Shown here: positions 16,703 to 62,500 of the stretch, piece by piece
Layout of the letters: the number at the start of each line of letters is the position of its first letter
Numbering within the stretch: position 1 is the first letter of the stretch
Assembly (NCBI GenBank): GCA_035289485.1
Contig: DATDXA010000029.1
Span: forward strand, 2,691 to 66,690
Direction of reading: 5' to 3'
DNA: 64,000 bases
DNA from: an archaeon
Lineage (GTDB): Archaea > Iainarchaeota > Iainarchaeia > Iainarchaeales > Iainarchaeaceae
Position numbers and translations under genes: made by a program
The notes under the pieces: model-generated
What the model was told of the DNA's origin: nothing
Database searches by the model: none
What the model saw: the letters and a program-made list of their open reading frames with translations, nothing else

Positions 16703-19700
16703 ATATTTTCAATCTTTTTCTCATTGATTATTATTTCAGCTGCGGCAAGCGCGGCGCATGAAGCAAATGTAACTCTTACACCAAACATTACAACCTGTTC
16801 TGAAGAAGGAAATACTTTCAATGTAAGTGTTGAAAACACTCCAGGAAGCACTGATGACATAATACAGGTTGAAATTTACAAAGCATTAGCAGGAATTTCA
16901 AATTTTTCCTGCGGTAGCGCACCGTTCGGATGGACATTGTTCTCGTTTATCGACAGATGTATATATGTGACAGAGCTTGCAGGTACAGAAAAAATTGCGC
17001 CAACTGAAACCCTTAATTTTACATTTGATGCTACAATGAACAGTAATGCCTGTATAAGCAACTTCACTGTGGTAACAGTCGATGACGCAACTCCGGTTGG
17101 AGACCGCGACACTCACCTTAAAGGCGTTTCAATCGACTGCACCCCGCCGATTGTGCAGAAATTTGTTGGCGACCCTGCAATACCGCTGACATGCGATGCA
17201 AAGGACATTAACGCGCAGGGCGGAGCAAATCTCGCGTGCAACTTCTGGATTACCGATGACACCATACTAAGCTTTTCAGCACAGGACAATAATACGGTTC
17301 TTGACGTGAATAAGCATATAATCCAGGCTGATGGCAACCTAATGTGCGACACTGGACTTGCTTACTGCCAGTGGAAATATGATGTTGACGGCTCTGCCCC
17401 TGAAAATTGGGAAAATGAATGTGAAAATAATTATGGGGGAATTTACGAAAATGGATGGTGTAAATTCTCAAATGGCAATACTTGGCAATTATCTGGCATT
17501 AAATTTGATGAGGACTCACAGCACAATATAGAAGTTGAGTGCTTTGACAATGCCGGAAATTCCACTTCAATTGAAGAAACCGACAAGGTCGACCAAACAG
17601 ACCCTGAGACGATTAAGACCCTCGGAGAGCCAAAAAAAGTTGTTGGGAATATTGAATGGATTAGCACTTCAACTCCGATAACACTCGCGCCAAATGACCC
17701 TGACCCGAGCGGATTTTCGTGCAATATTGGTGTTGATGAAACCAAATGGGTGAATATACTCGCGCCAGGCGGTCCAATACTAAGTCAGGATGATTTCTGC
17801 AATTATCCGGAGCTTTACTGTAACTCAAATTATATCAATACTCAAGACGAAAGCCTAAATTGGCAGGATTACACAGGGTCGTTCACAAAGGACGAGGAAT
17901 CGTGCCACGTGCTCATGTACTACAGCACTGATTTGATAGGCAATACACAAGACATCAACTTTAATTGCTTCTTTGTTGACGATACGCCACCTGCAATTGT
18001 AAAAGAGATAGGCGAGCCCAGTTCCGGCGACTGCCCTCCGGGACAAGAGGACTTATGTTACATAACTTCGGACACTAATATCACATTGCACTGCACAGAT
18101 ACAGGCCCTCACCCATCAGGCGGAGAAGTCGCCTGGTATAGGTACAGGTACACAGAAGACGGAAATACATGGAGCGACTGGCTGCCAACACTTGAAGATT
18201 GTGAAGGTCCGGAGTATGACACCAACGGGAATTGGTGCGACTGGAACGTTCAGAAGAAAGTTCACCTCCCTGAAGATTCGCTCCATCAACTGCAGTGGTA
18301 CTGCGAGGATGCGGTCGGAAACAAGAGCGAAATTGATGATGAATTCATAAGAGTTGACAATGAGCCGCCGACAATAACAAAGACAATGCTTGGCGATGCC
18401 AATGTTGATTATTTGGGAGACTGCCCGCCAGACCAGAACAGCAATGATGTCTGCTATGTTGCGGATAACGGAAGGGGTGGAGTGAATGTTTCAGTCACTG
18501 ATTTGGGCAACCCGGTGCACGCGGCAAACAACGTCACATGCAACTATGCGATGGAATGGGCAACTGATGAAAGTACCTGCCTTTTACACGCAGGAAGCTG
18601 GACAGGAACCACATGTGTGATTGATTCAGGATTATTTGTAGAACCTGACACGAACATACTCTTCGGCGAAGATTCAACGCACACCCTCAAAATCTGGTGC
18701 GCAGATTCGGTTGGAAACACAGCATATGATGAGGAAGTATTCCTAGTCGATTCAACGCCGCCGGTGTCAACCAAAACTTTCGGCCCTGAAGGGACGTTTT
18801 ACATTGAAGAAGAGTGCGAATACCAAGATGGATATGAGGGAGAGTATCAGTGCGAAGAAAAGGTCAAGGTTGAATGGATAGACACCAACACCCTCATTGA
18901 CATCAATGCAACAGACAACAAGGTCGGTGTTGACAAGACTTATTACAAGGTAATTGGGCCGGTTGATGATGTGGTCTGTGAGACGCAGTGCGAAGCATGG
19001 CAGGCATATGAAGAGCAAACAGAAGACTGGAACGTTTACACAGGGCCATTCAACGGCATCGGACAGTCGTGCCATGTGCTTGAATATTACAGCGTTGACA
19101 AGCTTGGCAATACTGAACAAACAAAGTACAATTGCTTCTTTGTGGATAAGACAGTTCCGTTAGTGGGCAAGATTAATGGTGACGAAGAGAACATTGCAAT
19201 TGCAGATTCAGGGGAGGCACTTTTCACGAATGCGAACAATCCGGATGGAAATTTCCACTGGGTTACAAGCTCAACGCCCATAACGATTACATGCACAGAC
19301 CAGCTCCCGCACCCTTCAGGAGTCCGAGAAGTCGGATTCAAGGTCGCATACGACCAGCCGGCATGGCCAACAGATGTCACGACGGATTATTGTGAAGGAG
19401 AGGTCGATGAGAGCGGATACTGCATAGCACAGCTCCAAAACGACAGCTTCACATTCTATTTCAATGAAGAAGAGGAGTCAATGCACAGCCTTGAGTACTA
19501 CTGCATAGATAATGTCGGCAAGGAAAGCGGAGTGCACAAGCAATATTACAAGGTAGATGACACTCCGCCGCAGTTCCAGAAAATTATCAGCGGGCCTTCA
19601 TATGGCGACTGCTCATTTGCAGGAACGGCAACTCCGGATTCAAACTGTTACGTTGACACTGCAACTTCAATTGATTTGAATATAGTCGACGGCGGAGCAA

Positions 19701-21481
19701 TCTGCGCGGTCGGGCTTGACAGCGAAGGATGCAGATGGAGATACCAGGTGCACGAGCAAGGATTCTCAACAGACGGCAACTGGTCAGACTGGAACAGCTC
19801 GTTCCCAATAGTATTCCCAGAAGAGAGCTATCACACGCTTGAAGTTGCGTGCAGCGACAGATTAGGCAATAGCACTGAGGGAGACATTGAATACTTCGTA
19901 GTGGACAAGACTCCGCCTGTGACGACAAAGCAGTTCAGCGAGGCAGGGCCTTACTTCTCATGCGTTGACTGGTGCGAAGCAGGAAACAAGTATGAGTGGC
20001 AGGTAGAAAATTGTGTGCAGCAATACTGCGCGGAGGATGTAGAAGGGCACTGGGTACCGCAGTGGGGAACATCAGACCTTAACATTTTGCTAAGCGCCTA
20101 CGACCCGCAGCCGCACCCAAGCGGAGTTGACGAGACAAAGTTTAGGATTAGCATGGTTGATGACGAGTTCTGCGGAACCGGAATACAAGAAGAGTACGAA
20201 GAGCCGCAAGTGTACTGTGAAGATGCTATTGGAAATGATTTGAACGGCGGATGGCAGACATACACAGGGGCGCCATTCAATGTGCCGGAGCAATCATGCC
20301 ACATGATAGAATACTACTCGGTTGATAATGTTCAGAAGACGGAGCAGACAAAGAAGGAATGTATTTACATCGACAATACCGGGCCAGAACCTGGCAAGAC
20401 TGTTGGGCAGCCATCAACAGAGTGGCACCCAAATGTCAATTGGACGCCGGGCAACCCGGTTGGCGACCAGCCAAGCGCGTTCTACCCATACATTGATGAC
20501 GGCAACCTGCTAAATGGGGAATGCTGGAGCGGTTCGAACTCAATCGACTGCTGGAAAGTAACGCTCATGACACCAGTGTATATGAGCTGCAACGACCCAG
20601 AGCCGCATCCGGTTGACCACAGTAAGATGTTCTTTATGGTAGGGCTTGATGGCGATGACGCAACCGAGAATTATTGTAATAAGGTAGATTACCAGCATGG
20701 TGTCGAAGCGAACATGACGGAAGATGGCTGGTGTGAAGTGAACAAGGACGACCTCACGTTCTACTTCCAGGAAGAAACAGAGCACAATCTCAAGTTCTAC
20801 TGTGAGGATGCACTAGGCAACGTCGGGCCAATTGATGATGAGAAGTTCAAGGTTGAGGGCGACAAGTTCAAGATTAAGCTAAACAAAAAATGGAACCTAA
20901 TATCGGTGCCATTTGTACTGCAGGATAGCAACATAGTGAAAGTATTCAAAGAAGTTGAGGATGAAATAGATTCAGTATGGACATTCGACGCTTTCACAGG
21001 CCAGTGGTATGTGTATAGGCCTTCGAGCCCGGGAACAAGCAACCTTGATTCAGTGGATTCCGGAATGGGCTACTGGGTACTCGCGCTTGATGAGAATGTG
21101 CTCGCAATCGGAGGAGCGCTATTCAGCCCCATTACAACTCCGCCAAGCAGGAGCCTCAAGGCAGGATGGAACCTTATAGGATATTACGGAACGGATGTGC
21201 TGCACAGCCACCCTGAAGCCGCAAAGTACTATGACGGGCCTGACGGGCACGGAAGGGTTGCTGGATGCTCACTGCTCTCACTTAAGACCAGCCTCACGGA
21301 TTTGGGATGGACTTCGCTTGAAACATATTGGGAACCATATAACCCCAACCAGTGGAAGTTCTTTGAGCCGGATGACAGGATGGATCCCGGTGCAGGGTAC
21401 TGGGTGCTTGCCTCCAAAGACGGCATCTACGCATACACTTCAATTGACGAGGGAGATTGCTCGCTCACAGATCTTGACTGA
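16703..21481 (+). CDS. Giant secreted adhesin-like protein (about 1590 aa) made of about 13 tandem Cys-containing Ig-like modules.
   Basis: Recurrent module signature ...SCHVLEYYSVDKLGNTEQTKYNCFFVDKT(P)P..., present in 9 or more recognisable copies. This is the D-x-x-G-N ... V-D-x-T-P-P hallmark of bacterial-Ig-like/cadherin-like surface domains. The protein is dense in N-glycosylation sequons. The first canonical in-frame start is TTG 16724, but a perfect signal peptide (KIFSIFFSLIIISAAASAAHEA) is encoded from 16703. Confidence 0.75.
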   Translation: MFSIFFSLIIISAAASAAHEANVTLTPNITTCSEEGNTFNVSVENTPGSTDDIIQVEIYKALAGISNFSCGSAPFGWTLFSFIDRCIYVTELAGTEKIAPTETLNFTFDATMNSNACISNFTVVTVDDATPVGDRDTHLKGVSIDCTPPIVQKFVGDPAIPLTCDAKDINAQGGANLACNFWITDDTILSFSAQDNNTVLDVNKHIIQADGNLMCDTGLAYCQWKYDVDGSAPENWENECENNYGGIYENGWCKFSNGNTWQLSGIKFDEDSQHNIEVECFDNAGNSTSIEETDKVDQTDPETIKTLGEPKKVVGNIEWISTSTPITLAPNDPDPSGFSCNIGVDETKWVNILAPGGPILSQDDFCNYPELYCNSNYINTQDESLNWQDYTGSFTKDEESCHVLMYYSTDLIGNTQDINFNCFFVDDTPPAIVKEIGEPSSGDCPPGQEDLCYITSDTNITLHCTDTGPHPSGGEVAWYRYRYTEDGNTWSDWLPTLEDCEGPEYDTNGNWCDWNVQKKVHLPEDSLHQLQWYCEDAVGNKSEIDDEFIRVDNEPPTITKTMLGDANVDYLGDCPPDQNSNDVCYVADNGRGGVNVSVTDLGNPVHAANNVTCNYAMEWATDESTCLLHAGSWTGTTCVIDSGLFVEPDTNILFGEDSTHTLKIWCADSVGNTAYDEEVFLVDSTPPVSTKTFGPEGTFYIEEECEYQDGYEGEYQCEEKVKVEWIDTNTLIDINATDNKVGVDKTYYKVIGPVDDVVCETQCEAWQAYEEQTEDWNVYTGPFNGIGQSCHVLEYYSVDKLGNTEQTKYNCFFVDKTVPLVGKINGDEENIAIADSGEALFTNANNPDGNFHWVTSSTPITITCTDQLPHPSGVREVGFKVAYDQPAWPTDVTTDYCEGEVDESGYCIAQLQNDSFTFYFNEEEESMHSLEYYCIDNVGKESGVHKQYYKVDDTPPQFQKIISGPSYGDCSFAGTATPDSNCYVDTATSIDLNIVDGGAICAVGLDSEGCRWRYQVHEQGFSTDGNWSDWNSSFPIVFPEESYHTLEVACSDRLGNSTEGDIEYFVVDKTPPVTTKQFSEAGPYFSCVDWCEAGNKYEWQVENCVQQYCAEDVEGHWVPQWGTSDLNILLSAYDPQPHPSGVDETKFRISMVDDEFCGTGIQEEYEEPQVYCEDAIGNDLNGGWQTYTGAPFNVPEQSCHMIEYYSVDNVQKTEQTKKECIYIDNTGPEPGKTVGQPSTEWHPNVNWTPGNPVGDQPSAFYPYIDDGNLLNGECWSGSNSIDCWKVTLMTPVYMSCNDPEPHPVDHSKMFFMVGLDGDDATENYCNKVDYQHGVEANMTEDGWCEVNKDDLTFYFQEETEHNLKFYCEDALGNVGPIDDEKFKVEGDKFKIKLNKKWNLISVPFVLQDSNIVKVFKEVEDEIDSVWTFDAFTGQWYVYRPSSPGTSNLDSVDSGMGYWVLALDENVLAIGGALFSPITTPPSRSLKAGWNLIGYYGTDVLHSHPEAAKYYDGPDGHGRVAGCSLLSLKTSLTDLGWTSLETYWEPYNPNQWKFFEPDDRMDPGAGYWVLASKDGIYAYTSIDEGDCSLTDLD

Positions 21482-26007: not shown

Positions 26008-26526
26008 ATGATGCGCATGGATAAACTTGAAATAAAAAATCTGGCGTACTGCAAGAAGCACGTCCCGGCAATATCAAAATGGATGTGGGAAGAATGGGAC
26101 AAAAAGAACGGAATTCCGCTTAAGGCAATAGAATACCGCACACGCCACTGCCTCGGAAAAAAGTCCATCCCGATGACATTTGTGGGGATTGTAAATGAAA
26201 GGCCTGTTGCAACAGTATCATTGTGGCGAAATGATGTGAACTCAAGGCAGGATCTCTTTCCCTGGCTCGCGGCCCTTTTTGTCGCCCCTGAGATGAGAAA
26301 GCTTGGGTTAGGAAGGGAAATGCAGGAATTTGCACTTGCAAAAGCAGGTGAACTCGGGTTTGGAAAAATTTACCTCATGACTTCGTACAAAAACTATTAC
26401 GAAAAAAACGGATGGAAATTTATAGACATGGCGCCGCTCGAAAGCCGGAAAAAAACCCGCATTTATTCCCATAAACTCTCGAGTAGCCCCAAAAATAACG
26501 ATGTCTATAACCCAAAAAATAAGTAG
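26008..26526 (+). CDS. GNAT family N-acetyltransferase.
   Basis: Acetyl-CoA binding block VAPEMRKLGLGREMQEFALAKAGELGFGKIYL. Confidence 0.75.
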   Translation: MMRMDKLEIKNLAYCKKHVPAISKWMWEEWDKKNGIPLKAIEYRTRHCLGKKSIPMTFVGIVNERPVATVSLWRNDVNSRQDLFPWLAALFVAPEMRKLGLGREMQEFALAKAGELGFGKIYLMTSYKNYYEKNGWKFIDMAPLESRKKTRIYSHKLSSSPKNNDVYNPKNK

Positions 26527-26684
26527 CCCCGCCCGGATTCGAACCGGGGTATCGGGCTCGCTTCAAAAAACCCATATAATATGAGATTTTTCCCAGAGGC
26601 CCGCATCCTGTCCAGTCGGGGACCAATCGTTCAAACAACGTGATTTACTAAACTGCGTTCCCTTGGCCACTAGACGACGGGGCT
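26524..26684 (-). tRNA. tRNA-Gln(CUG), archaeal type (A1:U72), 161 nt, apparently interrupted by two introns.
   Basis: 5' AGCCCCG pairs with 3' CGGGGCU plus discriminator A. T-arm CCCGG-UUCGAAU-CCGGG. D-loop UAGUGGCCAAGG. Anticodon stem CGGGC with loop CUCUGG and GCCCG 40 nt downstream. There are about 50 nt inserted between the D-arm and anticodon stem and about 33 nt after loop position 37. The leader and trailer extend the acceptor helix to 10 bp. Confidence 0.7.
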
Positions 26685-26853
26685 ACTGAAACTTTATTCT
26701 GCATGGCTGCCAACCTAGTGGACTTGGCAGGATGCCTGAAACTAATACATTCGGGAAACCTTAAAATAGCTTGCCCCGCGGGTTCTTGCCGCCTAGAATA
26801 AGCCGCGTTGGCTTTTGGCAAAAAGGTAATTTTATATATTTTCAGGGCGCAAT

Positions 26854-33499: not shown

Positions 33500-34830
33500 A
33501 ACGGCGTTGTCTAAAAACTCAGGCTTTGAATGAGACTTTTTGGTTTTTTGGGACTTCTGTCCAAAAAGTGTTTTTGAGGTCAAATTTGTAATAAGCCCTT
33601 ATTAGGCAGCAGATGTTGTGGCATATTATTTTGCAGGCCATTTCGGAGAAGTTTGCTGTGAGGTTTTTTGTAAATAAGATGTCTCCAAACTTTTGTTTTA
33701 TCATGTAAAATGTGGTTTCCACGTTGCTTCGTTTGTGGTAGTGTTCGTTGAATTTTTGTGGGTTTTCTTGGAAAAAGAATAGTGCCTTTCTCCAGACCGG
33801 GCCATTGCCCCTGCCTCTTTCATTGCTATTGCTTTTGAATGGAATAAAACCGGTTGCTCCGATTTCATCAATGAAATTGTAGTTTTCTTTGGAGAGATAT
33901 CCTTTGTCTGCAACTACTTCTTTTACGTCAAAAGCTAGGGCAGTCCTTTTCACAAGATATTTGAGTTGAGGCGCATCCCCAACAAACTGGTCTGTAAGTA
34001 CTGCCGATGTAACGACATTGGTTTTCACGCCAATTGTTATATGCGCTTTCCTGTAAACTCTCTCCTGATTTTCATTGTTTTTATCTACAGACCAATGACC
34101 AAATCTGGAAGTAGAGAACCCTGTTGAATCAACCCCAAAAACAAGCTCATCACACTGCACTAGTGGTCTTGCAGACAATTCTATTAACGAAGTAAGGACA
34201 CCGCACAATTTTTTGTTGTTGAAGTAATTGAGGATTGTAGCTCTTGAAGGCACCTTTTGTAGAAATCCTTTTTGTTTGTAATCTTCGAGAGTTGACATTA
34301 ACCTTCCGGCTGAGCGCCTATAGTAAACTTTCAAAAGCATACAAAAAATCACGTCTTTTATGTCAGAGATTGGTCTGCCTGTTTTCTGTATTTTTTCAAT
34401 GCTCAATTGTTCAAGCAGTTCGTCAATAAGGCTGTCAAACATGTGCGCTTCCTCAGCTTGATATTCATTATATGCTTTCCAGTCTGTAGGCGGAATTGGC
34501 TGACTTTGATATTTGAAAGGCATGGGCTCCGACATTTGCCTTTTGCCCCAAGCAAACTTGAAATGGCACTTAGCGCACTCATATTTTTGCCGCCAAATGC
34601 CCTTCATAATATTGGCGTATGCCTTGCCTTTCTTCACAAGCTTTTCATGCCCGCATTTCCTGCAAAATTTTGGCTCGCTTCTCAGGTTATCCATAAGTAA
34701 ACACTTTTCTGCCGAATTATGATATACTTGATAGGTAAAGTATATAAATATTCTGCCGAAAAATGAATATTTATATAGAAGTTCTGCCTAATAATAGTGA
34801 AAATTTAATACTAACAGGCAGATAATTATG
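33500..34830 (-). mobile_element. Insertion-sequence-like element: one DDE transposase gene flanked by TTCTGCC-containing repeats.
   Basis: 11-bp inverted repeat TTATTAGGCAG (33599-33609) paired with CTGCCTAATAA (34784-34794). Three direct TTCTGCC(G/T)AA copies at 34707, 34751 and 34782, plus an inverted copy at 34815. GC content is lower than the surroundings. Confidence 0.6.
33519..34694 (-). CDS. DDE transposase with an N-terminal zinc-ribbon (IS5/IS1595-like).
   Basis: N-terminal CRKCGHE...CAKCHF zinc finger. C-terminal ADKGY ... HYHKRSNVETTFYMIKQKFG, matching the DDE_Tnp_1 Y-x-R-x3-E-x6-K signature. Confidence 0.8.
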   Translation of the reverse strand: MDNLRSEPKFCRKCGHEKLVKKGKAYANIMKGIWRQKYECAKCHFKFAWGKRQMSEPMPFKYQSQPIPPTDWKAYNEYQAEEAHMFDSLIDELLEQLSIEKIQKTGRPISDIKDVIFCMLLKVYYRRSAGRLMSTLEDYKQKGFLQKVPSRATILNYFNNKKLCGVLTSLIELSARPLVQCDELVFGVDSTGFSTSRFGHWSVDKNNENQERVYRKAHITIGVKTNVVTSAVLTDQFVGDAPQLKYLVKRTALAFDVKEVVADKGYLSKENYNFIDEIGATGFIPFKSNSNERGRGNGPVWRKALFFFQENPQKFNEHYHKRSNVETTFYMIKQKFGDILFTKNLTANFSEMACKIICHNICCLIRAYYKFDLKNTFWTEVPKNQKVSFKA

Positions 34831-39508: not shown

Positions 39509-42500
39509 TCAGCGCTTCTTTGCATTGCGCCTTGTGTAAATGAATGAGCCCACAATCAGCGCTATGAAAAGCAATAGCAGCAGCCTCTCTTCCGGAAGCG
39601 AAGGCAAGTTCAAAAAGCTTGAATCCTTCTTGCCAAGGTCCACATTGAGCACATTTCCGGTTGCGGTTGCAGTGGTCTCCCCGTTTGGCTGCACCTTTGC
39701 CGCAATTCCCTCGCGGAACGCATCAATAAGCGGCAAGAGCTGCGCATTTTCGGCAAACCATAATCCCTTATCAGGGTCATAGTAGAATGAGCCGTTCTTG
39801 CCCTGCGCCGCGATGAGAACTTCCGGCTTATTCTCATCAAGCTGCACAATCGGCGCCCCGTCCTTGGTTGAGAATTTCACTTCGTGCGTCTGCCCATCAT
39901 TTGTGGTTATCTTAAAGCCGTCCGGCGTCTGTGAAATTGTTCCTGTGTAGTCGGTAACCTTGCCTGTGGCCTTGTCTATTACTCGCAGATGGTCCTCGCA
40001 CACTCCCTGCGCATTCTTCTCGGCCGAAATCACATAGCGCTGTGTGGGCGTTTCAAACACTGTGAACGGGCCCTGGTGCTGCAGCGCCTTATTGAACTTG
40101 TCAACTTTTGCGGCCTGCAAATCCGAACCAAGGTCTGGCAGCACTTCAAAGTTCACAACAGGGTCTGCACAACCGGTTTCGGGGTTTGCCGCCCTTTCCA
40201 AATCCGTTTTGAGGCCCTTTGCAAGTTCCTTGCTAAGGATTCCATCCTCGTGGTGCTTTAGCCAGGCAAGGAAGCACCCATTTGGCTTTACAATAATCAC
40301 TCCGTTAGCAAACTGCAGGCTCTCAAGCTTTCCTACCGAAGTCTCGCCATCATTGGAGCTTGAGAGGTTCACGTCCTTGTTTGCGAGCACTGTAACGGTG
40401 GCATTCTTGCCTTCCGCAACCTTTCTTGGAACTCCCTCCGCCTGTATCTTGTCGCCAAGAGGCCTGATGTTTGGGTGAGTGGTGGTCACAATCGCCTCAA
40501 GCTTTCCGAACGCGTCATTGAGCTTTTCTGAATCAAGCGTAAGCCCTGTCTGCTCAATAACGCCTTTCTTGATGCAGTCAAGAAGTTCCTTGTTAACCAC
40601 GCGCACTTCTCCTTGCGCATTTATTTCAAATGCCTTTTCGGTTGTGTTCTCAAGGCAGGTTTCAGTAAGGGTATTTGGAATTTCTATAAAGGGGCCGTTT
40701 AGGTTTGTTGTTGCAAGCCTCACATTGTCCGGAGTCTGAACTATCGGAGAGCCATTTAGTGTAATCTCCCCCTTTGCAAAATCAATGCCAACATCAAGGC
40801 CATTTACGCCCCTAATCTCTTCGCTTCCCGATTGCTTGTATGATGCGGGGGTCATTTCACATCCCTTGCCGCACCAGAAGTAGAATAGTGAAGTTGAATC
40901 AAGCTGGCCGCTGTTGAGCCCTTCAAGGCGCAGTGTTGCCTGCACCAAGTTGTTCTCTTTTGAATCCTTCTGGAACCTGTCAAGTTCATCTCCGAGCTTT
41001 TGCGCGGCGTCCTTTGTGAGGCTGTCTTTGTCGCTCTGGAACGTGTCAACAAAGCTTGACTTGAACCTCTGCACCAAATTGGAAACCTTTTCGGTTGATA
41101 TTTCAGTGGAGTTGGTTTTTTTATCCTCTTTCTTCAGCACGGGAACAAAGTAGTGAACGTAATACCCCTCATCAACATCGATGCAGTCCTGCAATTGCGG
41201 CACAACTACTATTTGTATTGTCGCGGTTGCGAAAATTCCGGCCCAGAAAAATGTCCCGTAAGTGATTGATTCAAGGCCTCCGAGCACTGCGCCAATTCTT
41301 CCCTTTTCCTTGAGCTTATCAGGAATAATTTTGCCAAGGCTTATGCCGTAGAGGTTTAGCTGGTCTAGGGCATCTGAGCATGTTTTTTTATCGTTGATTG
41401 CATCGGCAAGGTTTATTGGCTCTCCCTTCTCATTCCCGCTCTGGCCAATTAGGTTTGTGTGCGCGGCAAACATTATAAGTGTCTGGCCCTTATCCCTTGC
41501 CGCCTGGCTTACTGTATCTTCCAGTATATATGAAACAAGCTTTTGGTTTTCTGTAAAGAAGAATGGCCTGAAGCGCGTGAGATCGTCCGAGCGCAATGTA
41601 AGAGAGCAATTCGCGCAGTCCTCGGGGCCTGTCAGGTAGAACGCGAGGTTTTCTGTTTCATTGCGCAGCTCATTTTTGGTGAGCGCATCGTAGAGGTTTT
41701 TTACAGGATTGTATTTTTCCGAAAGCTCATCTAGCACGAGTTTCCACGGGAGCTTGTTGATTACCTGAACGAACAAATCCCCCTGGTCCGAGCCTTCGTT
41801 TGCGAAGAAATCGAGGTATGCGTAATCGTATATGTTTTGCGCGCCTGTTGTGAAGCTTAGCCTGTGCCATGTTTCAGGAAGCTGGTATTGGCTTATTCCT
41901 TCTATTCCGAACCCTTTCTTTGCCCACCAGTACCCGAACGGTAGCGCGGTCCATTTAGCGCCGCCCTTTACAGTAAAGTAGCTGCGTATGAGTTCATTTT
42001 CCTGCGCGGTGAGCTTATCAAGTGCGCTCCAGTACCTGCGCGAAACCCAGTTCTGCTCGCGCAGCGCATCAAGTGTTTGCTCTATGTTTATGTGCCCGAA
42101 CTTCATGTTCGCGTTCACTCCCGTTCTTCCGCTGTCTATTCTCGCAATGACATCTTCTGGGGTAATTTCGCCCCACTCTTTCCAGCCGCCGTATTTGACG
42201 CTTGTGACATTGGAAGTTAACCTGTTTTGGATGTACTCAGCAGAGCCGGCATTGTAAGGGATGTAATTGCCGTACTGGTCTGGGATGAATGCGTCCGCGG
42301 AGTTTTTCGCTGCGGCCTTTACATTGCTGTATGAAACACCGGGGCCTGCCTTGGCTGTTGCTTCATCGAATGAATATAGAACAAGCTTGTCTCCTCTTGT
42401 TTCAAACACCTGCCCGTATTCTGCTAATTTATTTGGGAATGTTGAAAAGCCGCCGTGTGGGTCATCCTTTAACTGCTTTAGAATCCTCTGAAGGTTCCTG

Positions 42501-44053
42501 TGATCCTGGAACAAGTTGACGACTTCGCCCTGCCCATCGGGGGTAACAATTTTGACACCCTTATCGTAAAATCCGGCGTTCGGGTATCTTGCGACCCATT
42601 CGATGTAATCCGCTCCGAGATTGGATTCGTCGTAGACATCATCCATCATCCTAATCATTTCCTGCCCGTACTCGCGGTATTTCTGGCGCACAACAGGGTC
42701 TTCGAAGACGTTTGCAACGCCGCGTATCTTCGCCGCCTTTTCAGCGTCCTGGAACGCGCCCTGCGCGCCCTTGACCCTTGCATACCCTCCCCTTAGCACG
42801 GAGCGCATGTCCTCAAGAAGCCTTATGAATTCGCCGCGCTCTTCAAGGGATTTCATCTTGGTGAGAAACCCGTCGTGCCCGAGCGCTTCACCAAGCAAAT
42901 CCTGGTATTCCTCGGTTTTGAATAAGTAGTACCCTGTTCCGTCAGATTTTCCGCCGACAACTTTTTGCCACCACTCGCGCCATCCGGGGTATTTGTCAAG
43001 GCGGGTTTTGATTCGGTTTGTTAGGATTTTTCCATAAGGTGAGTCATTTGTGATGTACTGCGCCCTGAACTTGTCAGCGAACTCCTGATAGCCATCCCTC
43101 ACTCCTGAAAAGAACCCCCTTCTTCCGCTCCAGCCGAAAAGTTTTTTTGTGTGGTAGAGAAGGCTTGGGCCGAACGCACTCACAACCATTTCAGAAGACA
43201 TCCAGGAGTTGAAATATTTGTCAAAAAGTGAGTAGGTGCTTATCACGCACGAGGAGTTGTTGCAGTTTGTTTCCAGTTTTGCGCTGAACGAATCTGAGAG
43301 AATGGAATTGGAAATGAGTTGCTTTTCAAGCCTTGCCGCGGTTTTTACCTGCGCATCTTCGGGCTCTTTTGCAACGAGCGCATTTTTTAGCACCTCATTT
43401 TCCGCGGCGCTGAACTTGTTAGTGTCCTCTTTTGTGAAAACTTCCTGTATGGGCTTTAGGTCTGCCACAATTCCCGCGCCGGAATTTCGGTACTTGAGAT
43501 TGGGGCCTGTCAGGCCGCACTCGGATGAGCTCATGCTCTCGCATCTTCCCGCGCGCAGCGAATCATCAAGCACCACTCCAAGTGAGAACGGCCCCTTTAT
43601 TGAATTATTCAGGAACTGCGAAATTTCCCATGGCTTGAATTTGAGCGAAGGGACTTCGCCCTTCACCGCGACATTTTCATCGCCGGGTTTTGTGAGAACT
43701 ATTGTATTCGCATCGAGCTTTTCGCGGTCTGTGTCTTTTGAAGTCTGCCCCGCGATTTCATTTCCGGTAAAGCCCTTTTTCAAAAGGTCAATTAGGTTTT
43801 GTGTTTCATTTCCGGGGAGCTGCGATGAGGCGCACATGAACTCATTTACTTGCGGCACGCCCTGCGTAGCTGAAGTTGTTTGCACTCCAGTACCTGTCTC
43901 GCGCGCAGCGGTTTGCTCCGGAGTTTCAATAAGAGTGCGCGGATCCTGTGCAGATGGAGGGTCGGCAAAATCAGCAAGCAGCGGGTTTGAAGCGAACGCC
44001 AGAGCTGGGAAAAACATCATGTAAATGAGGAAAAGAGCGTAAACCTGCCGCAT
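39509..44053 (-). CDS. Giant surface protein (1514 aa) with an N-terminal signal peptide and a C-terminal transmembrane anchor.
   Basis: Start at MRQVYALFLIYMMFFPALAFASNP. The C-terminus is LLLLLFIALIVGSFIYTRRNAKKR. The intervening ~1450 aa have no recognised domain. The gene is adjacent to pilus locus 2. Confidence 0.7.
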   Translation of the reverse strand: MRQVYALFLIYMMFFPALAFASNPLLADFADPPSAQDPRTLIETPEQTAARETGTGVQTTSATQGVPQVNEFMCASSQLPGNETQNLIDLLKKGFTGNEIAGQTSKDTDREKLDANTIVLTKPGDENVAVKGEVPSLKFKPWEISQFLNNSIKGPFSLGVVLDDSLRAGRCESMSSSECGLTGPNLKYRNSGAGIVADLKPIQEVFTKEDTNKFSAAENEVLKNALVAKEPEDAQVKTAARLEKQLISNSILSDSFSAKLETNCNNSSCVISTYSLFDKYFNSWMSSEMVVSAFGPSLLYHTKKLFGWSGRRGFFSGVRDGYQEFADKFRAQYITNDSPYGKILTNRIKTRLDKYPGWREWWQKVVGGKSDGTGYYLFKTEEYQDLLGEALGHDGFLTKMKSLEERGEFIRLLEDMRSVLRGGYARVKGAQGAFQDAEKAAKIRGVANVFEDPVVRQKYREYGQEMIRMMDDVYDESNLGADYIEWVARYPNAGFYDKGVKIVTPDGQGEVVNLFQDHRNLQRILKQLKDDPHGGFSTFPNKLAEYGQVFETRGDKLVLYSFDEATAKAGPGVSYSNVKAAAKNSADAFIPDQYGNYIPYNAGSAEYIQNRLTSNVTSVKYGGWKEWGEITPEDVIARIDSGRTGVNANMKFGHINIEQTLDALREQNWVSRRYWSALDKLTAQENELIRSYFTVKGGAKWTALPFGYWWAKKGFGIEGISQYQLPETWHRLSFTTGAQNIYDYAYLDFFANEGSDQGDLFVQVINKLPWKLVLDELSEKYNPVKNLYDALTKNELRNETENLAFYLTGPEDCANCSLTLRSDDLTRFRPFFFTENQKLVSYILEDTVSQAARDKGQTLIMFAAHTNLIGQSGNEKGEPINLADAINDKKTCSDALDQLNLYGISLGKIIPDKLKEKGRIGAVLGGLESITYGTFFWAGIFATATIQIVVVPQLQDCIDVDEGYYVHYFVPVLKKEDKKTNSTEISTEKVSNLVQRFKSSFVDTFQSDKDSLTKDAAQKLGDELDRFQKDSKENNLVQATLRLEGLNSGQLDSTSLFYFWCGKGCEMTPASYKQSGSEEIRGVNGLDVGIDFAKGEITLNGSPIVQTPDNVRLATTNLNGPFIEIPNTLTETCLENTTEKAFEINAQGEVRVVNKELLDCIKKGVIEQTGLTLDSEKLNDAFGKLEAIVTTTHPNIRPLGDKIQAEGVPRKVAEGKNATVTVLANKDVNLSSSNDGETSVGKLESLQFANGVIIVKPNGCFLAWLKHHEDGILSKELAKGLKTDLERAANPETGCADPVVNFEVLPDLGSDLQAAKVDKFNKALQHQGPFTVFETPTQRYVISAEKNAQGVCEDHLRVIDKATGKVTDYTGTISQTPDGFKITTNDGQTHEVKFSTKDGAPIVQLDENKPEVLIAAQGKNGSFYYDPDKGLWFAENAQLLPLIDAFREGIAAKVQPNGETTATATGNVLNVDLGKKDSSFLNLPSLPEERLLLLLFIALIVGSFIYTRRNAKKR

Positions 44054-44179
44054 TGGACCAGCCCGTGAATACAGTAATTTATTACAATTAATAAGGTACG
44101 TTTTGGCATATTTATTTATATGCCCGAAAGAAAAAAGCCCGAAAATATGTTCTAAATTTCTCAAGGCAAGAGAGATTTT

Positions 44180-56364: not shown

Positions 56365-56549
56365 ACCTTTGGCTATGAATTGGGAATTCGTATTATTATA
56401 CTTATTTATAAAGGCACGAATCCGAGATAAAGAGCATTAGGAGTGCCGGAGGGGCAATGCCGGAAAATCCGCGCGCATTCCGCCATGCACGTGCCGCAAT
56501 AATCAATACTATTTTAAATCCGGAAACCATTCATAATAAAGAGATTCAA

Positions 56550-59500
56550 ATGTCGACTGATTTTACAAAAAGCGGCGCGGCAAAACTTTTGCTCTTTTTT
56601 GCGGTGTTTATTGCCACGGCGGCTTTGATGATTAATTTCACGGCAACCGGTTTTGCACCCCTCTCCGGCGCGGGCTCGGGGCTTGTCGCACACTACACAT
56701 TCGATGAGGGAAGCGGCACAACCTCGGTTGATTTTAGCGGGCAGGGAAATAACGCAACGCTTGTCGGCAGCGCATCTTGGGCCGCGGGAAAAACCGGGCA
56801 GGCGCTTTTGGTTTCAGGCGGCTCAAGAGCCACAATATCGGGGGACAGAATAGGCACAGGAGCGGCAACTATTTGCGCATGGATAAACCCCTCAGCAGTG
56901 ACATACCTTCACTCAATCGTTTCCACTACCGCTTTCCAGTTACAGGCCTTCAATACGGGAAGCGGCAGCAGCTACAGCATTTATCTTTTGAATAATTCGG
57001 CGGCATGGCAGAACACTGCGATTTCGGCCGGCGGAATAACCCCCGGGCAGTGGGCACATGTGTGCGCGGTAAGGCAGAGCAGCGGAAACACCACCCTCTA
57101 TGTTAACGGCGCGCAATCTGGAGCGGCAAACCAGTTCGCGGGCACACCGGTAAATAATTACGGCGGCGTCCCGCTCACACAAACAACAATCGGCGCGGAC
57201 CCAAACGGCAGCGCCGCATTCACAGGCAGCATCGATGACGTGCGCATCTACAACAGGGAACTGCCGGCAAACGAAGTGCAAGAACTCTACAACGGAGCCC
57301 CAGCAGTTCCTGACACGCAAGCGCCGAGCACACCAACAGGGCTGAATGCAACCGCAGCATCCCAAAGCCAGATAAATCTCACATGGAACCCGTCATCGGA
57401 CAACGTCATTATAATCGGATATAATGTGTACAGGAACGGAACGCATGTCGGCACAGCCACAACAACAGCATACAACGACACAGGCCTTGCCGCAAACACC
57501 GCATACTCATACACCGTGGCGGCATACGACGCCGCAGGAAACACAAGCGCGCAATCATCACAGGCAAGCGCAACAACAACATCAACCCCGCCCGCAACAT
57601 TCACCCTAACAGTTGCAAAGTCCGGGACCGGAAGCGGAACCATTTCAGGCGGCGCAATCAACTGCGGAACAACCTGCACACAAACAGCAATCACAACAGG
57701 AACACAAATCACACTCACAGCAAACCCCGCAACCGGCTCAACATTCACAGGCTGGAGCGGAGCATGCACAGGAACAACAAACTGCACACTCACAATCGGC
57801 GCAAACACAAGCACAACCGCAACATTCAACACAACAAGCGGCGGAGGTTCCGGCAACACAATAAATGTGAACTGCTCTGGCAACATCACAACCGCACTGC
57901 AAAACGCAATAAACTCCGCCTCGGACGGGGACACAATCAACATCGGCGCGGGAAGCTGCTCTGCTGGCCAGGTTTCTTGGGTGAACAAGAACATAACCGT
58001 GAGGGGCCAGGGAATTGGCGCAACCAACGTGAGCGGGCTGTCATTTGATGTCAAAAATAGCACAAAATCGGCTTTCAGAATCACGGGCATGAGTGTGGGC
58101 GCGGCGCCGCAATGGCGCATCAACGCCGACAACAGGACAACCGGCATAAAGGGCTGGAGGCTTGATCACATCGAATGGTCATATCCCACGTGCACGCAAA
58201 ACATTGCGGTGATGATTGACGGCATTACCTGGGGCCTTATTGACAACAGCGTGTTCCGGAATGCGGGCAACGCGATTTTCCTACGCAGCTACGCAGAGGG
58301 CACAGACGAGGTAAGCCCATGGCCGCCAGACGGCTCGCCGGGAATGGGCGGCTATTCGTGGCTTCTCCCGCTGAATATGGGCAGCGATGAGGCAGTGTAT
58401 GTTGAGGACAGCACTTTCATAATGGACAATGGCTGCTATTACGGTGTCGGCGATTCATTCTATGGCGGAAAGAGGGTGTTTCGCCACAATACAGTCACCA
58501 ATGCCTATTTCCAGAACCACGCGGCGCGCGGGCATGAAAGGGGCGGAAGCATTAGTTCTGAGGTTTACAACAATGTTTTTGACGCAACGGATTCGGGATG
58601 GTACCGGCCGATACACATAAGGTCCGGCACAGGGGTTGTGTTCAACAACACAATTAAGGGATTTTTCAACAGAATTGATGTGGACGACCAGAGGAGTTGT
58701 GGCGAGAACATCAATTCGCCCTTTGGTGCGTGCAACGGCTCAAGCCCGTGGGACGGGAACCAGCCGGGGCAGAGCGGCTATCCGTGCCTTGACCAGATAG
58801 GCAGGGGCACTGGCCAGTACCCTAATCAGCCGCTGGCACCGTACTATTTCTGGAACAACGGTTCATCCGCCACATGCTCAACTGGCGGGAGCTGCAACAA
58901 CAGCACAAGCATAGGGCAGAGCGCGTGCAGCACATCGCACATACAGGAGGGCAGGGACTACATAATCGGAACGCAAAAGCCAGGGTATTCCCCATACACC
59001 TATCCGCATCCGCTTCAGGGCGGGGTTTCGCCGCCATCTGACACATCGGCGCCAACAGTTCCAGCCGGGCTTGGCGCTTCGCAAACCACTTCCAGTGGCA
59101 CCACGATTTCCTGGAACGCCTCAACAGACAACACGGGCGTCACAGGATACAGGGTCTACAGAAACAGCGTTCAAATAGGCACGGCAACCGGCACATCATA
59201 CGCCGACACCGGCCTCTCACCCTCAACAACATACTCATACAGAATCTCCGCATACGACGCCGCAGGAAACACAAGCGCACAATCAAGCGCACTCTCGGTA
59301 ACAACAAGCGCGGGAACAGCAACATTTACCCTAACAGTTGCAAAGTCCGGGACCGGAAACGGAACAGTCTCAGGCGGCACAATCAACTGCGGAACAACCT
59401 GCACACAAACAGCAACAACAGGAACACAAATCACACTCACAGCAAACCCCGCAACCGGCTCAACATTCACAGGCTGGAGCGGAGCATGCACAGGAACAAC

Positions 59501-62500
59501 AAACTGCACACTCACAATAAACACCAACACAAGCGCAACCGCAACATTCAACACAACAACCCCGCCACCCACCGGAGGGCTGATACCAGCAGACAGGCTC
59601 AATGACTGGACCTATACGGGCGTTCCAGGCGGCATACCTAACAGGACCACGATTTGCGCGACTTTAAATCCGGGGGCGAGCGCAAGCCAGATTAACAGCG
59701 CAATCTCCTCGTGCAACAACGGAGTGGTCTATCTCAACGCTGGCACTTACAATGTCACTGGAATCCAGCTCTACAAGAGCAATGTGACCTTGCGAGGGGC
59801 TGGCGCCGACAAGACAATTCTCAAGGGCGGCAATATCATTGCAATGGGCAACGGAGGCAATTCAGCATCCGGCATATCCATAACAGGCGGAACAGCCAAG
59901 GGCTCAACGGCGATTACAGTCAGCAACACAAGCGGCCTGTCCGCAGGCATGATGATAGAAATTGACAGGGCAAACGACCCGGGCGTGGTCGTATCCACAA
60001 CGGGCAACGCTTCACGTTTCATCCGCCAGGTCAACAGGATAAAATCCATCAGCGGCAATACAATCAACCTGGAAAATCCGCTTTTCTATAATTTCAACTC
60101 AAGCCCCACAATCAGATACACATTCCCCACATTTACGAGCATGAGCGGTGTTGAAGACCTCAAGCTCGACCACTCAGGGAGCGGTTCATCTGGTTATGCA
60201 TTTTACACCAATTATTGCTATGGCTGCTGGGTCAAAGGAGTCCATTCATACAACCCCTATGGATTTCATATGGTCATTCTTGGCACTCTGAATATCGAGA
60301 TTAGGGACTCTTTTTTCAATGACGCCCAGACAGTGGGAGCCAACAACGCAGGGCTTGCGGTGTATGGAAGCGACCTATACGGCTCAAACAGCAACATGAA
60401 AATAGAAAACAACATTTTTGACAAATCGTTCCCCGGAATTGAACTGCAAAATTCCACCAGCGGCAACTATCTTGGCTACAACTACGGGCATGCAACCCAG
60501 GTCGTACCCGACGATTACTTCACCACATGGATGTTCCTTGACAATCACGGCCCGCATGACATGATGAACCTGTGGGAAGGCAATACCGGCGAGCTCTTCG
60601 GCTCTGATGGGTATTTCGGCGGCTCAAGCCACGGCGTGGCATTCCGCAACAATTTCACAGGAGTAAACCTGCGCGGGCCGCAAAACCCTGACAATCCGGT
60701 GCGCCTCAACCGCCTGTCCTATTACTACACGCTGGTCGGAAACGTCCTCGGTTCGCCAAGCGCAAGGCCGGTCAAATATGAGCAGGCAAGCGACGGGTGC
60801 GGCGATGGCCTTGCAGTATACCGGCTTGGCTATCCCAACATCGGCAATTGCGGGCTCACCGATGTTACCGGAAACAACGTGCCAGGCGGCATGAGTTATC
60901 CTGATGCCAAGGTCAAATCAACCCTTTTCAGGTGGGGCAATTATGATTACTTCAATAACGCCGCGCGCTGGGATTCAAGCGAAATACCGGCAGGTGTCGC
61001 AGTCCCCGCCACCCAGGCACTGCCAGATTCGCTCATATACAGTTCAAGGCCTTCATGGTGGCCATCGGCAGTTGCATGGCCCCCAATAGGCCCCGATGTT
61101 GCGGCAAAGGCCAATAAGATTCCCGCACAGCTATGTTTTGAAAATAACAATATCGCGAACGGCGGCGCCTTCAATGCGGCTTCATGCTATGGGTCGACTA
61201 CATCACCGACATGCACTTCTTTTACTTATTCCGCTTGGGGCGCATGTATTGGAGGGATGCAGACGCGGACGGTGCTTTCAAGTTTGCCAAGCGGGTGCAC
61301 GGGCGGCAGCCCAATCACTTCGCAGGCATGCACGGTTGCAAACAACCCGCCAACGGTTTCTATCACAAGCCCCGCGAACAACACAACGCTCTCATCCCCG
61401 TCAAGCGTTACAATCACGGCGAGCGCAAGCGACAGCGACGGCGCAATCAACAAGGTCGAATTCTTCAACGCAGCAACACTCATAGCAACAACCACAACCC
61501 CGCCCTACACAACAACACTCAACAACCCAACCGCCGGAACATACACGCTCACGGCAAAAGCAACCGACAACCAAAGCGCAACCACAACCTCCACACCAAT
61601 AACACTCACAATCACACAAGACACAACACCACCCATAAGAAGCAACGGAGAGCCAACAGGAACACTCCCCTCAACAATAACACAAACAAACATCTCACTC
61701 AACACAAACGAACCCGCAAACTGCCGCTACACAACCATAGCAAACACAACCTACAACAACATGGGACTCACACTAACACCAAACACACCAATCTCAACAA
61801 CACACACAACAAACATCACAGGAATACAACCATCAAGAACCTACACATACTACATACGCTGCACCGACAACGCCGGAAACGCCAACACGAACGACTACAC
61901 AATCACATTCACAACAGCAGCACCCTCACCAATAAACGGCTCATGCGGACCAACAAACAACACATGCACACAAGGAACACTAAATGATGTCACAGATTCG
62001 GCAACCAACTACCTCTGGAACTGCAACGGAACAAATGGAGGAACAAACGCAAGCTGCTCAATACCAAAACCGGTAAACGGAGCTTGCGGAACAACACTCA
62101 ATTCCTGCACACAAGGAACACTAAACGACACAGCAGACAACGCAACACAATACCTATGGAACTGCAACGGAACAAACGGAGGAACTGTCGCTAGCTGCTC
62201 GCTTACCAAACCCATAAACGGAACATGCGGAACCGCAGCAAAAGCATACGCACCAACCGAAAACTTCCCCAACGGAAACTACTGCAACACCGGAACACCA
62301 AACCCCACAACACCAACAAACCCAACCACAACAACACCCTCGAACTGGACGTGCACCGGAACCAACGGCGGCACAAACAGCCCAACATGCACCGCAACAA
62401 GAACAGCAACACCAATCAACGGAACATGCTCAAACACGCCCGAAACATGCACAACAGGAACATACACCGATGCAACAGACACACCCACACAATACAACTG

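Follow-up and report, generated by a model that had tools for sequence, protein, structure and literature searches.

The window analysed here is a 64-kb stretch of DNA, and at positions 26684..26524 of its minus strand it was confirmed to carry a pre-tRNA-Gln(CUG) gene of 161 nt with two introns. Precursor positions are numbered from p1 (window 26684) to p161 (window 26524). Exon 1 (26664..26684, minus strand, p1-21) comprises the 5′ strand of the acceptor stem (AGCCCCG), U8 and C9, the 5′ strand of the D-stem (GUCU) and the D-loop AGUGGCCA. It is followed by intron 1 (26610..26663, minus strand, p22-75), a non-canonical intron of 54 nt which lies in the D-loop at about Sprinzl position 20b/21 and has at best a relaxed bulge-helix-bulge (BHB) motif. 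Exon 2 (26593..26609, minus strand, p76-92) contains A21, the 3′ strand of the D-stem (GGAU), G26, the anticodon stem CGGGC and the loop CUCUGG, with the anticodon CUG at 26596..26594. Intron 2 (26559..26592, minus strand, p93-126) is 34 nt long and occupies the canonical position 37/38. Exon 3 (26524..26558, minus strand, p127-161) supplies A38, the anticodon stem strand GCCCG, the variable loop AUAC, the T-arm CCCGG-UUCGAAU-CCGGG, the acceptor strand CGGGGCU and the discriminator A73. Read along the precursor, the order is GUCU-AGUGGCCAA (D-stem 5′ strand and D-loop), the 54-nt insertion, GGAU-G-CGGGC-CUCUGG, the 34-nt insertion and A-GCCCG-AUAC. Exon 1 is identical to that of the orthologous locus L116 and of 49 intron-less orthologues, exon 3 to that of L116 and L128. 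On joining the exons (21+17+35 nt) a 73-nt cloverleaf is obtained, which is called tRNA-Gln(ctg) by ARAGORN.

Archaeal tRNA-Gln is recognized by the anticodon YUG, the A1-U72 pair and the discriminator A73, and it is charged first with Glu, which is then amidated. All these marks can be read from the sequence of the present gene (anticodon CUG, A1-U72, A73). The A1-U72 pair and A73 are common to all the intron-less orthologues but one, L018, which has G73. The CCA end is not encoded by the gene, and a run of T residues lies 3′ of the gene end. A T-loop motif search showed that the only perfect T-arm in the window belongs to this gene, and no other disrupted tRNA with a 5-bp T-stem was found in the window by the same search. 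Three independent metagenome assemblies (L001-L003) carry the gene without any difference in sequence, and its contig is present in Rifle aquifer metagenomes.

A preliminary description of this DNA had proposed a tRNA-Gln(CUG) of 161 nt at 26524-26684, and its coordinates, the acceptor with A1-U72, the T-arm and the anticodon stem and loop are all to be found in the sequence. It had also proposed two introns, one canonical at 37/38 and one non-canonical, with which the orthologue comparison agrees; the sizes, given as about 50 and about 33 nt, are in fact 54 and 34 nt. The non-canonical intron had been placed between the D-arm and the anticodon stem, and this placement has to be corrected. The 3′ strand of the D-stem, GGAU, is downstream of the first insertion, so the intron is inside the D-arm, and the BHB motifs of five homologues place it within the D-loop at 20b/21. 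It had further been noted that leader and trailer extend the acceptor helix to 10 bp. The extra pairs (U-1:A73, G-2:C74 and A-3:U75) do exist, but no relative other than the closest one shares them, and L116, L118, L113 and L114 lack them; since they are not conserved they are probably incidental. The gene does not have the organization of a split or permuted tRNA either, as the three exons are colinear in 161 nt and the leader-trailer pairing is of 3 bp, bulge-free and not conserved.

With default settings ARAGORN reported no genes over the 64 kb, and Rfam gave no match in the window at the gathering threshold. At an E-value threshold Rfam returned only a partial tRNA match of 16.9 bits, built on the 3′ half of the unspliced gene and below the gathering score of RF00005, which is 29. 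Splicing was imitated in silico by removing two segments over a grid of boundaries and running each product through ARAGORN. The grid gave thousands of tRNA calls, and the top scores, 119-120, were of Gln(ctg) with intron 2 cut at 37/38, the length being 72-75 nt according to the junction chosen. Once both introns are removed, the sequence has the cloverleaf of a tRNA (RF00005, isotype Gln), with an acceptor stem of 7 bp, a D-arm containing G18 and G19, an anticodon stem of 5 bp with its 7-nt loop, and a T-arm whose loop is UUCGAAU. The intron-less syntenic orthologue L122 obtains 57.2 bits as a tRNA in Rfam and is called Gln(ctg) by ARAGORN. The defaults of ARAGORN and of the Rfam tRNA search miss the window gene and all nine of the nine intron-bearing orthologues that were scanned. 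On such an annotation the genome would seem to be without a CAG-reading tRNA-Gln, which would distort inferences on completeness and codon usage for metagenome-assembled DPANN genomes.

Syntenic orthologues and the distribution of the introns

A scan of a genome collection with the 23-nt 5′ exon as query gave 99 loci, almost all of them from DPANN archaea (Micrarchaeota, Aenigmatarchaeota, Iainarchaeum and Woesearchaeota). Intron-less tRNA-Gln genes of 73 nt account for 49 of the 99, and all of these have the D-arm GUCU-AGUGGCCAA-GGAU/C; the joined exons of the window gene share this D-arm, GUCUAGUGGCCAAGGAU/C, with them. Many of the loci also carry introns in the T-loop (for example L026, L055, L069 and L082) or a very long intron at 37/38, which can be of about 100 nt (L040, L027 and L036).

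Syntenic orthologues were traced through a DUF192 gene situated some 1.2 kb away from the tRNA. All the syntenic tRNA loci are upstream of this same DUF192 gene, and of a T2SSE gene as well where the contig extends far enough downstream; the DUF192 proteins are 63-73% identical among these loci. The relatives of the DUF192 protein bear the names Diapherotrites, Micrarchaeota and AR10, which agrees with a DPANN-type host, DPANN being among the archaeal groups named in the preliminary description, and the host is probably a DPANN archaeon similar to Diapherotrites/Iainarchaeota.

Every combination of presence and absence of the two introns was found among the syntenic orthologues. Both introns are absent from L122-L125. 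The 37/38 intron alone is present in L113, L114, L117, L118 and L116, the last of which has joined exons 100% identical to those of the window gene. The D-loop intron alone is present in L128 (and L126), L115, L121 and L119; the exons of L128 are the same as those of the window gene from position 22 onward, and so is the trailer. Both introns are present in L107, as they are in the window. The window gene thus reads as a 73-nt tRNA-Gln(CUG) body with two independent insertions, and on this comparison of sequences its structure is settled by the syntenic orthologues in related DPANN archaea. The intron pattern had earlier been taken as a marker of the lineage. This view could not be maintained, because introns that come and go among syntenic relatives are poor markers above the level of genus; the pattern marks strains or genera and not a lineage.

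Alignment showed intron 1 and the D-loop introns of L128, L115, L121, L107 and L119 to be homologous. The intron core CAGTTYAGTAAATC was searched for throughout the window and all 128 loci, and it is confined to tRNA-Gln(CUG) genes, which gives no sign of dispersal. Inspection by eye showed no RUGAUGA/CUGA boxes of a C/D-box guide RNA in intron 1.

Predicted splicing motifs of the two introns

As an intron of the ordinary 37/38 kind, intron 2 has a near-perfect BHB. Its motif is of the hBHBh′ form, in which the anticodon stem serves as the outer helix of 5 bp and the inner helix is of at least 5 bp. The central helix is formed by CUCU (nucleotides 32-35) and GAAG with three of the four positions paired and a C34·A mismatch, and the bulges are of 3 nt each (GG|G and CG|A). 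Intron 2 therefore has the 37/38 position, the two 3-nt bulges and the flanking helices of a canonical BHB intron. In position, in the 3-nt bulges, in the central helix made by nucleotides 32-35 and in the use of the anticodon stem as outer helix it is like the 37/38 intron that is canonical in archaeal and eukaryotic tRNAs, a strict hBHBh′ substrate of alpha4/alpha′2 EndA; it differs in the one C34·A mismatch, which is missing from six homologous introns. In these six orthologous introns (five scored computationally and that of L107 by eye) the central helix is fully paired, with GGAG in five and AGAG in L118; of the seven introns, that of the window alone has a mismatch in this helix.

The five relatives of intron 1 have a strict 3-4-3 BHB at one placement, with cuts after CA (p21) and before AGGAU. 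In each the central helix p16-19 is paired at four of four positions, the bulges are of 3 nt and the inner helix is of 4-7 bp, while the other outer helix is the D-stem, two nucleotides off. The predicted cut site of the family, CA|A...xx|AGGAU, is Sprinzl 20b/21. In the alignment of the six D-loop introns 97% of the cells are paired as against 31-58% in slid controls, and compensatory changes are present at 4 pairs. The first central pair varies as U16-A, C16-G and U16·G, and the inner helix covaries as A23-U/G23-C and A25-U/G25-C. In L128, L115 and L121 the cloverleaf with the BHB is what folding without constraints gives as the minimum-energy structure.

The copy in the window departs from the family in the following ways. 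U69 is changed to A, giving a G18·A69 mismatch; U71 and G72 are inserted within the 3′ strand of the central helix; and there is an A26·C64 mismatch. Counted rigidly, two of the four central pairs are left in the family register, or three of four if a 2-nt bulge is allowed. Because of repeated A and G bases, the same 73-nt product results whether intron 1 is taken as p22-75, p23-76, p24-77 or p25-78, and the repeated bases of the window would by themselves permit any position up to 23/24. A rigid search over all plausible splice pairs found no strict BHB for intron 1 among the window placements that give the consensus 73-nt tRNA.

The unconstrained minimum fold of the precursor is at -62.2 kcal/mol, and in it p10-16 of the exon and p69-75 of the intron form a helix of 7 bp in place of the D-stem. 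This competing exon-intron helix has an ensemble probability of 0.99 and the D-stem a probability of about 0. A relaxed BHB compatible with the cloverleaf was found at -54.9 kcal/mol, which is 7.3 above the minimum free energy. It is made up of the D-stem, two bulges, one of 5 nt (G72-A76) and one of 4 nt (C19-A22), an inner helix in which G23-A26 pair with U63-C66, and a central helix of five positions (A14-U71, G15-C70, U16-A69, G17·G68 and G18-C67). Cuts one nucleotide before each outer helix, at p21|22 and p75|76, would give the 73-nt product. Two variants that keep the family register, A (-47.5 kcal/mol) and B (-52.6 kcal/mol), were less favourable than this shifted motif and were set aside. 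The three junction changes all lengthen the shifted helix (p14-16 with p69-71). As modelled, the window intron would be the degenerate member of the family, for which only a relaxed BHB folds. We conclude from these folds that the motif is probably relaxed and not destroyed.

Non-canonical tRNA introns are known at 20/21 and 22/23 (PMC4090602), and the insertion sites published for archaea include 20/21, 22/23, 25/26, 29/30, 45/46, 53/54 and 59/60 (PMC4090602, PMC4033280, PMC3239211, PMC8450103). In Crenarchaeota, Thaumarchaeota, Nanoarchaeota and ARMAN both the introns at 20/21 and 22/23 and tRNA genes interrupted by two or three introns are well documented (PMC4090602, PMC4033280, PMC8450103). 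The present gene resembles the multi-intron tRNA genes of Thermoproteales, Thaumarchaeota and ARMAN-2/Micrarchaeota in having short, probably BHB-type introns, canonical and non-canonical in one gene, in the D-loop/D-stem site, which is a published hot spot, and in that default tRNA finders are blind to it. It differs from them in the relaxed D-loop motif with bulges of 4 and 5 nt, its five homologues being strict. For Diapherotrites/Iainarchaeota-like DPANN archaea no described case of such introns was found in the searchable literature.

Another comparison is with the 22/23 intron of tRNA-Gln in Aenigmatarchaeota (L038/L049, L026, L106, L108, L109 and L111, including Candidatus Aenigmarchaeum subterraneum). 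It interrupts the same tRNA with an identical 5′ exon, has a strict BHB and is inserted 2 nt from the site in the window. However, it is of 15-24 nt, its sequence (AGAGAAAUCUGGUAA...) is unrelated, the cut is at G22|G23 and the central helix is GCCA:UGGU, as against (U/C)GGC in the D-loop family to which the window intron belongs. With a different sequence, cut and central helix, it is an independent insertion. On the same tRNA-Gln 5′ exon, L112 and L013 carry further unrelated D-arm introns with a strict BHB, inserted at about 21/22 and at 24/25, respectively. The D-arm of tRNA-Gln is accordingly a recurrent target.

Probable processing of the precursor and competing readings

In our opinion it is highly probable that the locus is a functional two-intron tRNA-Gln(CUG) gene of a DPANN archaeon whose transcript is spliced at BHB motifs. 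The archaeal splicing endonuclease (EndA) would cut both bulges of each BHB, and an RtcB-type ligase would join the three exons. CCA would be added after ligation, because the gene encodes none, and the product would be the 73-nt tRNA with A1-U72 and A73. This scheme is drawn by homology with the published pathway (PMC4090602, PMC3239211, PMC5829648, PMC12397907). The sequences themselves show the structure of the gene, the identity of the exons, the homology of the introns and the covariation of the BHB within the family, whereas we infer that splicing takes place, where precisely intron 1 is cut in this genome and which type of enzyme cuts it. The D-loop motif would have drifted by a 2-nt insertion and two mismatches. 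Given this drift and the competing 7-bp pairing, splicing of intron 1 probably depends on an endonuclease of broad specificity. No splicing endonuclease gene was found among the 40 ORFs of the window that were scanned against Pfam. In DPANN archaea, EndAs of the alpha4 type with an L3 loop go together with a larger number of disrupted tRNA genes (PMC5829648). Enzymes of broad specificity act on motifs with bulges of 1-4 nt or on half motifs (PMC3239211). A bolder proposal, which we regard as quite unlikely, is that the D-loop motif has moved by two base pairs and that the endonuclease either tolerates the 4/5-nt-bulge motif or cuts in a new register, giving a tRNA-Gln with an altered D-loop.

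The window copy could instead be an incipient pseudogene, with exons intact and a D-loop intron that is no longer accurately excised as its BHB is damaged; in that case the cell would have to make use of a further tRNA-Gln gene, or of a tRNA-Gln(UUG) that reads CAG by wobble. It is true that this copy is the one member in six of its family to lack a strict BHB in intron 1, that it stands alone among seven in the central-helix mismatch of intron 2, and that the folding ensemble strongly favours a pairing other than the cloverleaf. Yet the exons are identical to those of L116 and L128 while introns and flanks have diverged, which suggests continued selection, and the same sequence recurs in three separate assemblies. 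Each of the three changes at the 3′ junction lengthens one and the same alternative helix, a pattern that resembles a motif shift and not decay at random. In other archaea relaxed motifs do undergo splicing (PMC3239211), and within the 64-kb window no second copy is seen. Decay of the gene is thus distinctly unlikely, and a functional gene remains the preferred reading. A functional gene could still yield a different product if the D-loop intron were spliced in a shifted register, leaving a mature D-loop unlike the family consensus. In one such arrangement, GGCC|ACAGGAU, the cut falls two nucleotides past the shifted central helix on each strand and a 74-nt tRNA with the D-loop AGUGGCCACA results; in another the intron is cut out at A22|G23 and G77|G78, and the tRNA is then of 72 nt and has the D-stem GUCU/AGAU. 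The modelled helix p14-18:p67-71, if cut after the second nucleotide of the bulge, would give p20|21 and p73|74. The p22|23 / p77|78 arrangement also has a BHB-like form with three of four central pairs and outer helices of 2 bp, and its 72-nt product scores slightly above the 73-nt product in ARAGORN (120.1 vs 119.2). Against this, the D-loop ends in AA followed by GGAU or GGAC in all 49 intron-less orthologues, and it ends in the same way in the L122-L125 group and in L113, L114, L116, L117 and L118, that is, in all the syntenic loci without a D-loop intron. The size of the D-loop may moreover matter in discrimination between tRNA-Gln and tRNA-Glu. The p22|23 / p77|78 conformer is very unfavourable at -38.4 kcal/mol, and this arrangement was ruled out by its energy together with the conservation of the D-loop in the orthologues. 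Splicing in a shifted register is, on the whole, very improbable.

The preliminary description had named a fold with a single canonical intron and another anticodon as the result that would speak against it. Such folds were indeed forced when ARAGORN was run with -i. For the whole window it proposed Met(CAU) at 26523-26724, the intron being of 114 nt, and for the excised region alone Phe(GAA), the intron being of 83 nt. The two calls contradict each other, their D and anticodon arms are weak, no BHB is present at the junctions, and the Met call has a different 5′ end. The orthologues, which show two independent insertions in a Gln(CUG) body, refute a single long intron, and we give it practically no credence.

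Genes of this kind are a known archaeal oddity, and no new mechanism is revealed by the present one. For the evolution of introns, the orthologues with none, either or both of the introns form a small but clean collection in which the gain and loss of BHB introns can be followed. The collection also shows to what extent a motif can degenerate, which bears on the substrate range of the poorly characterised splicing endonucleases of DPANN archaea. If the shifted-motif reading is true, the gene and the full range of intron states among its syntenic orthologues would together be a natural snapshot of drift, gain and loss of BHB introns in these organisms.

Surroundings of the gene

Downstream of the tRNA gene a convergent ORF for a GNAT acetyltransferase (26008-26526, plus strand) overlaps it with its stop codon by the last 3 nt (26524-26526). 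On the other side, an ORF of the LAGLIDADG family (312-336 aa) is located directly upstream of tRNA-Gln(CUG) and on the same strand in L107 (278-1288, minus strand) and L118 (2726-3664, minus strand), the latter having a Pfam LAGLIDADG_3 domain. The window keeps a C-terminal remnant of about 21 aa at 26708-26770 (minus strand; pairwise E = 0.001). A block of about 70 nt of DNA around this remnant is conserved in L128, L121, L115, L116 and L119, and it may, speculatively, be retained as the carrier of the tRNA promoter. The presence of LAGLIDADG sequences is uncorrelated with that of the D-loop intron.

In several relatives the 3′ end of the tRNA-Gln gene is duplicated as att-like direct repeats 0.1-1 kb downstream of the orthologous gene. 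Such duplicates were observed in L117 (about 190 and 1184), in L120 (about 542 and 605) and in L122-L124 (in L122, for example, 2986 and 3578), and in L122-L124 the insert between the repeats includes a HicB gene. The duplicated 3′ ends indicate that the tRNA-Gln gene is a target of integration in these relatives; no such duplicate is present within the window. An ORF of 391 aa at 33519-34694 (minus strand) has a DDE_Tnp_1 transposase domain (E = 4e-20) and is probably an insertion sequence.

Elsewhere in the window very large ORFs are found at 16724-21481 (plus strand, 1585 aa) and 39509-44164 (minus strand, 1551 aa), neither of which has a Pfam match, and at 56457-63518 (plus strand, 2353 aa). 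From 44 kb to 52 kb many of the smaller ORFs likewise lack a Pfam match. A cluster of sugar-nucleotide and glycosyltransferase genes occupies 0.7-12 kb, and a T2SSE/T2SSF set of the pilus or archaellum type lies at 28.6-31.7 kb.
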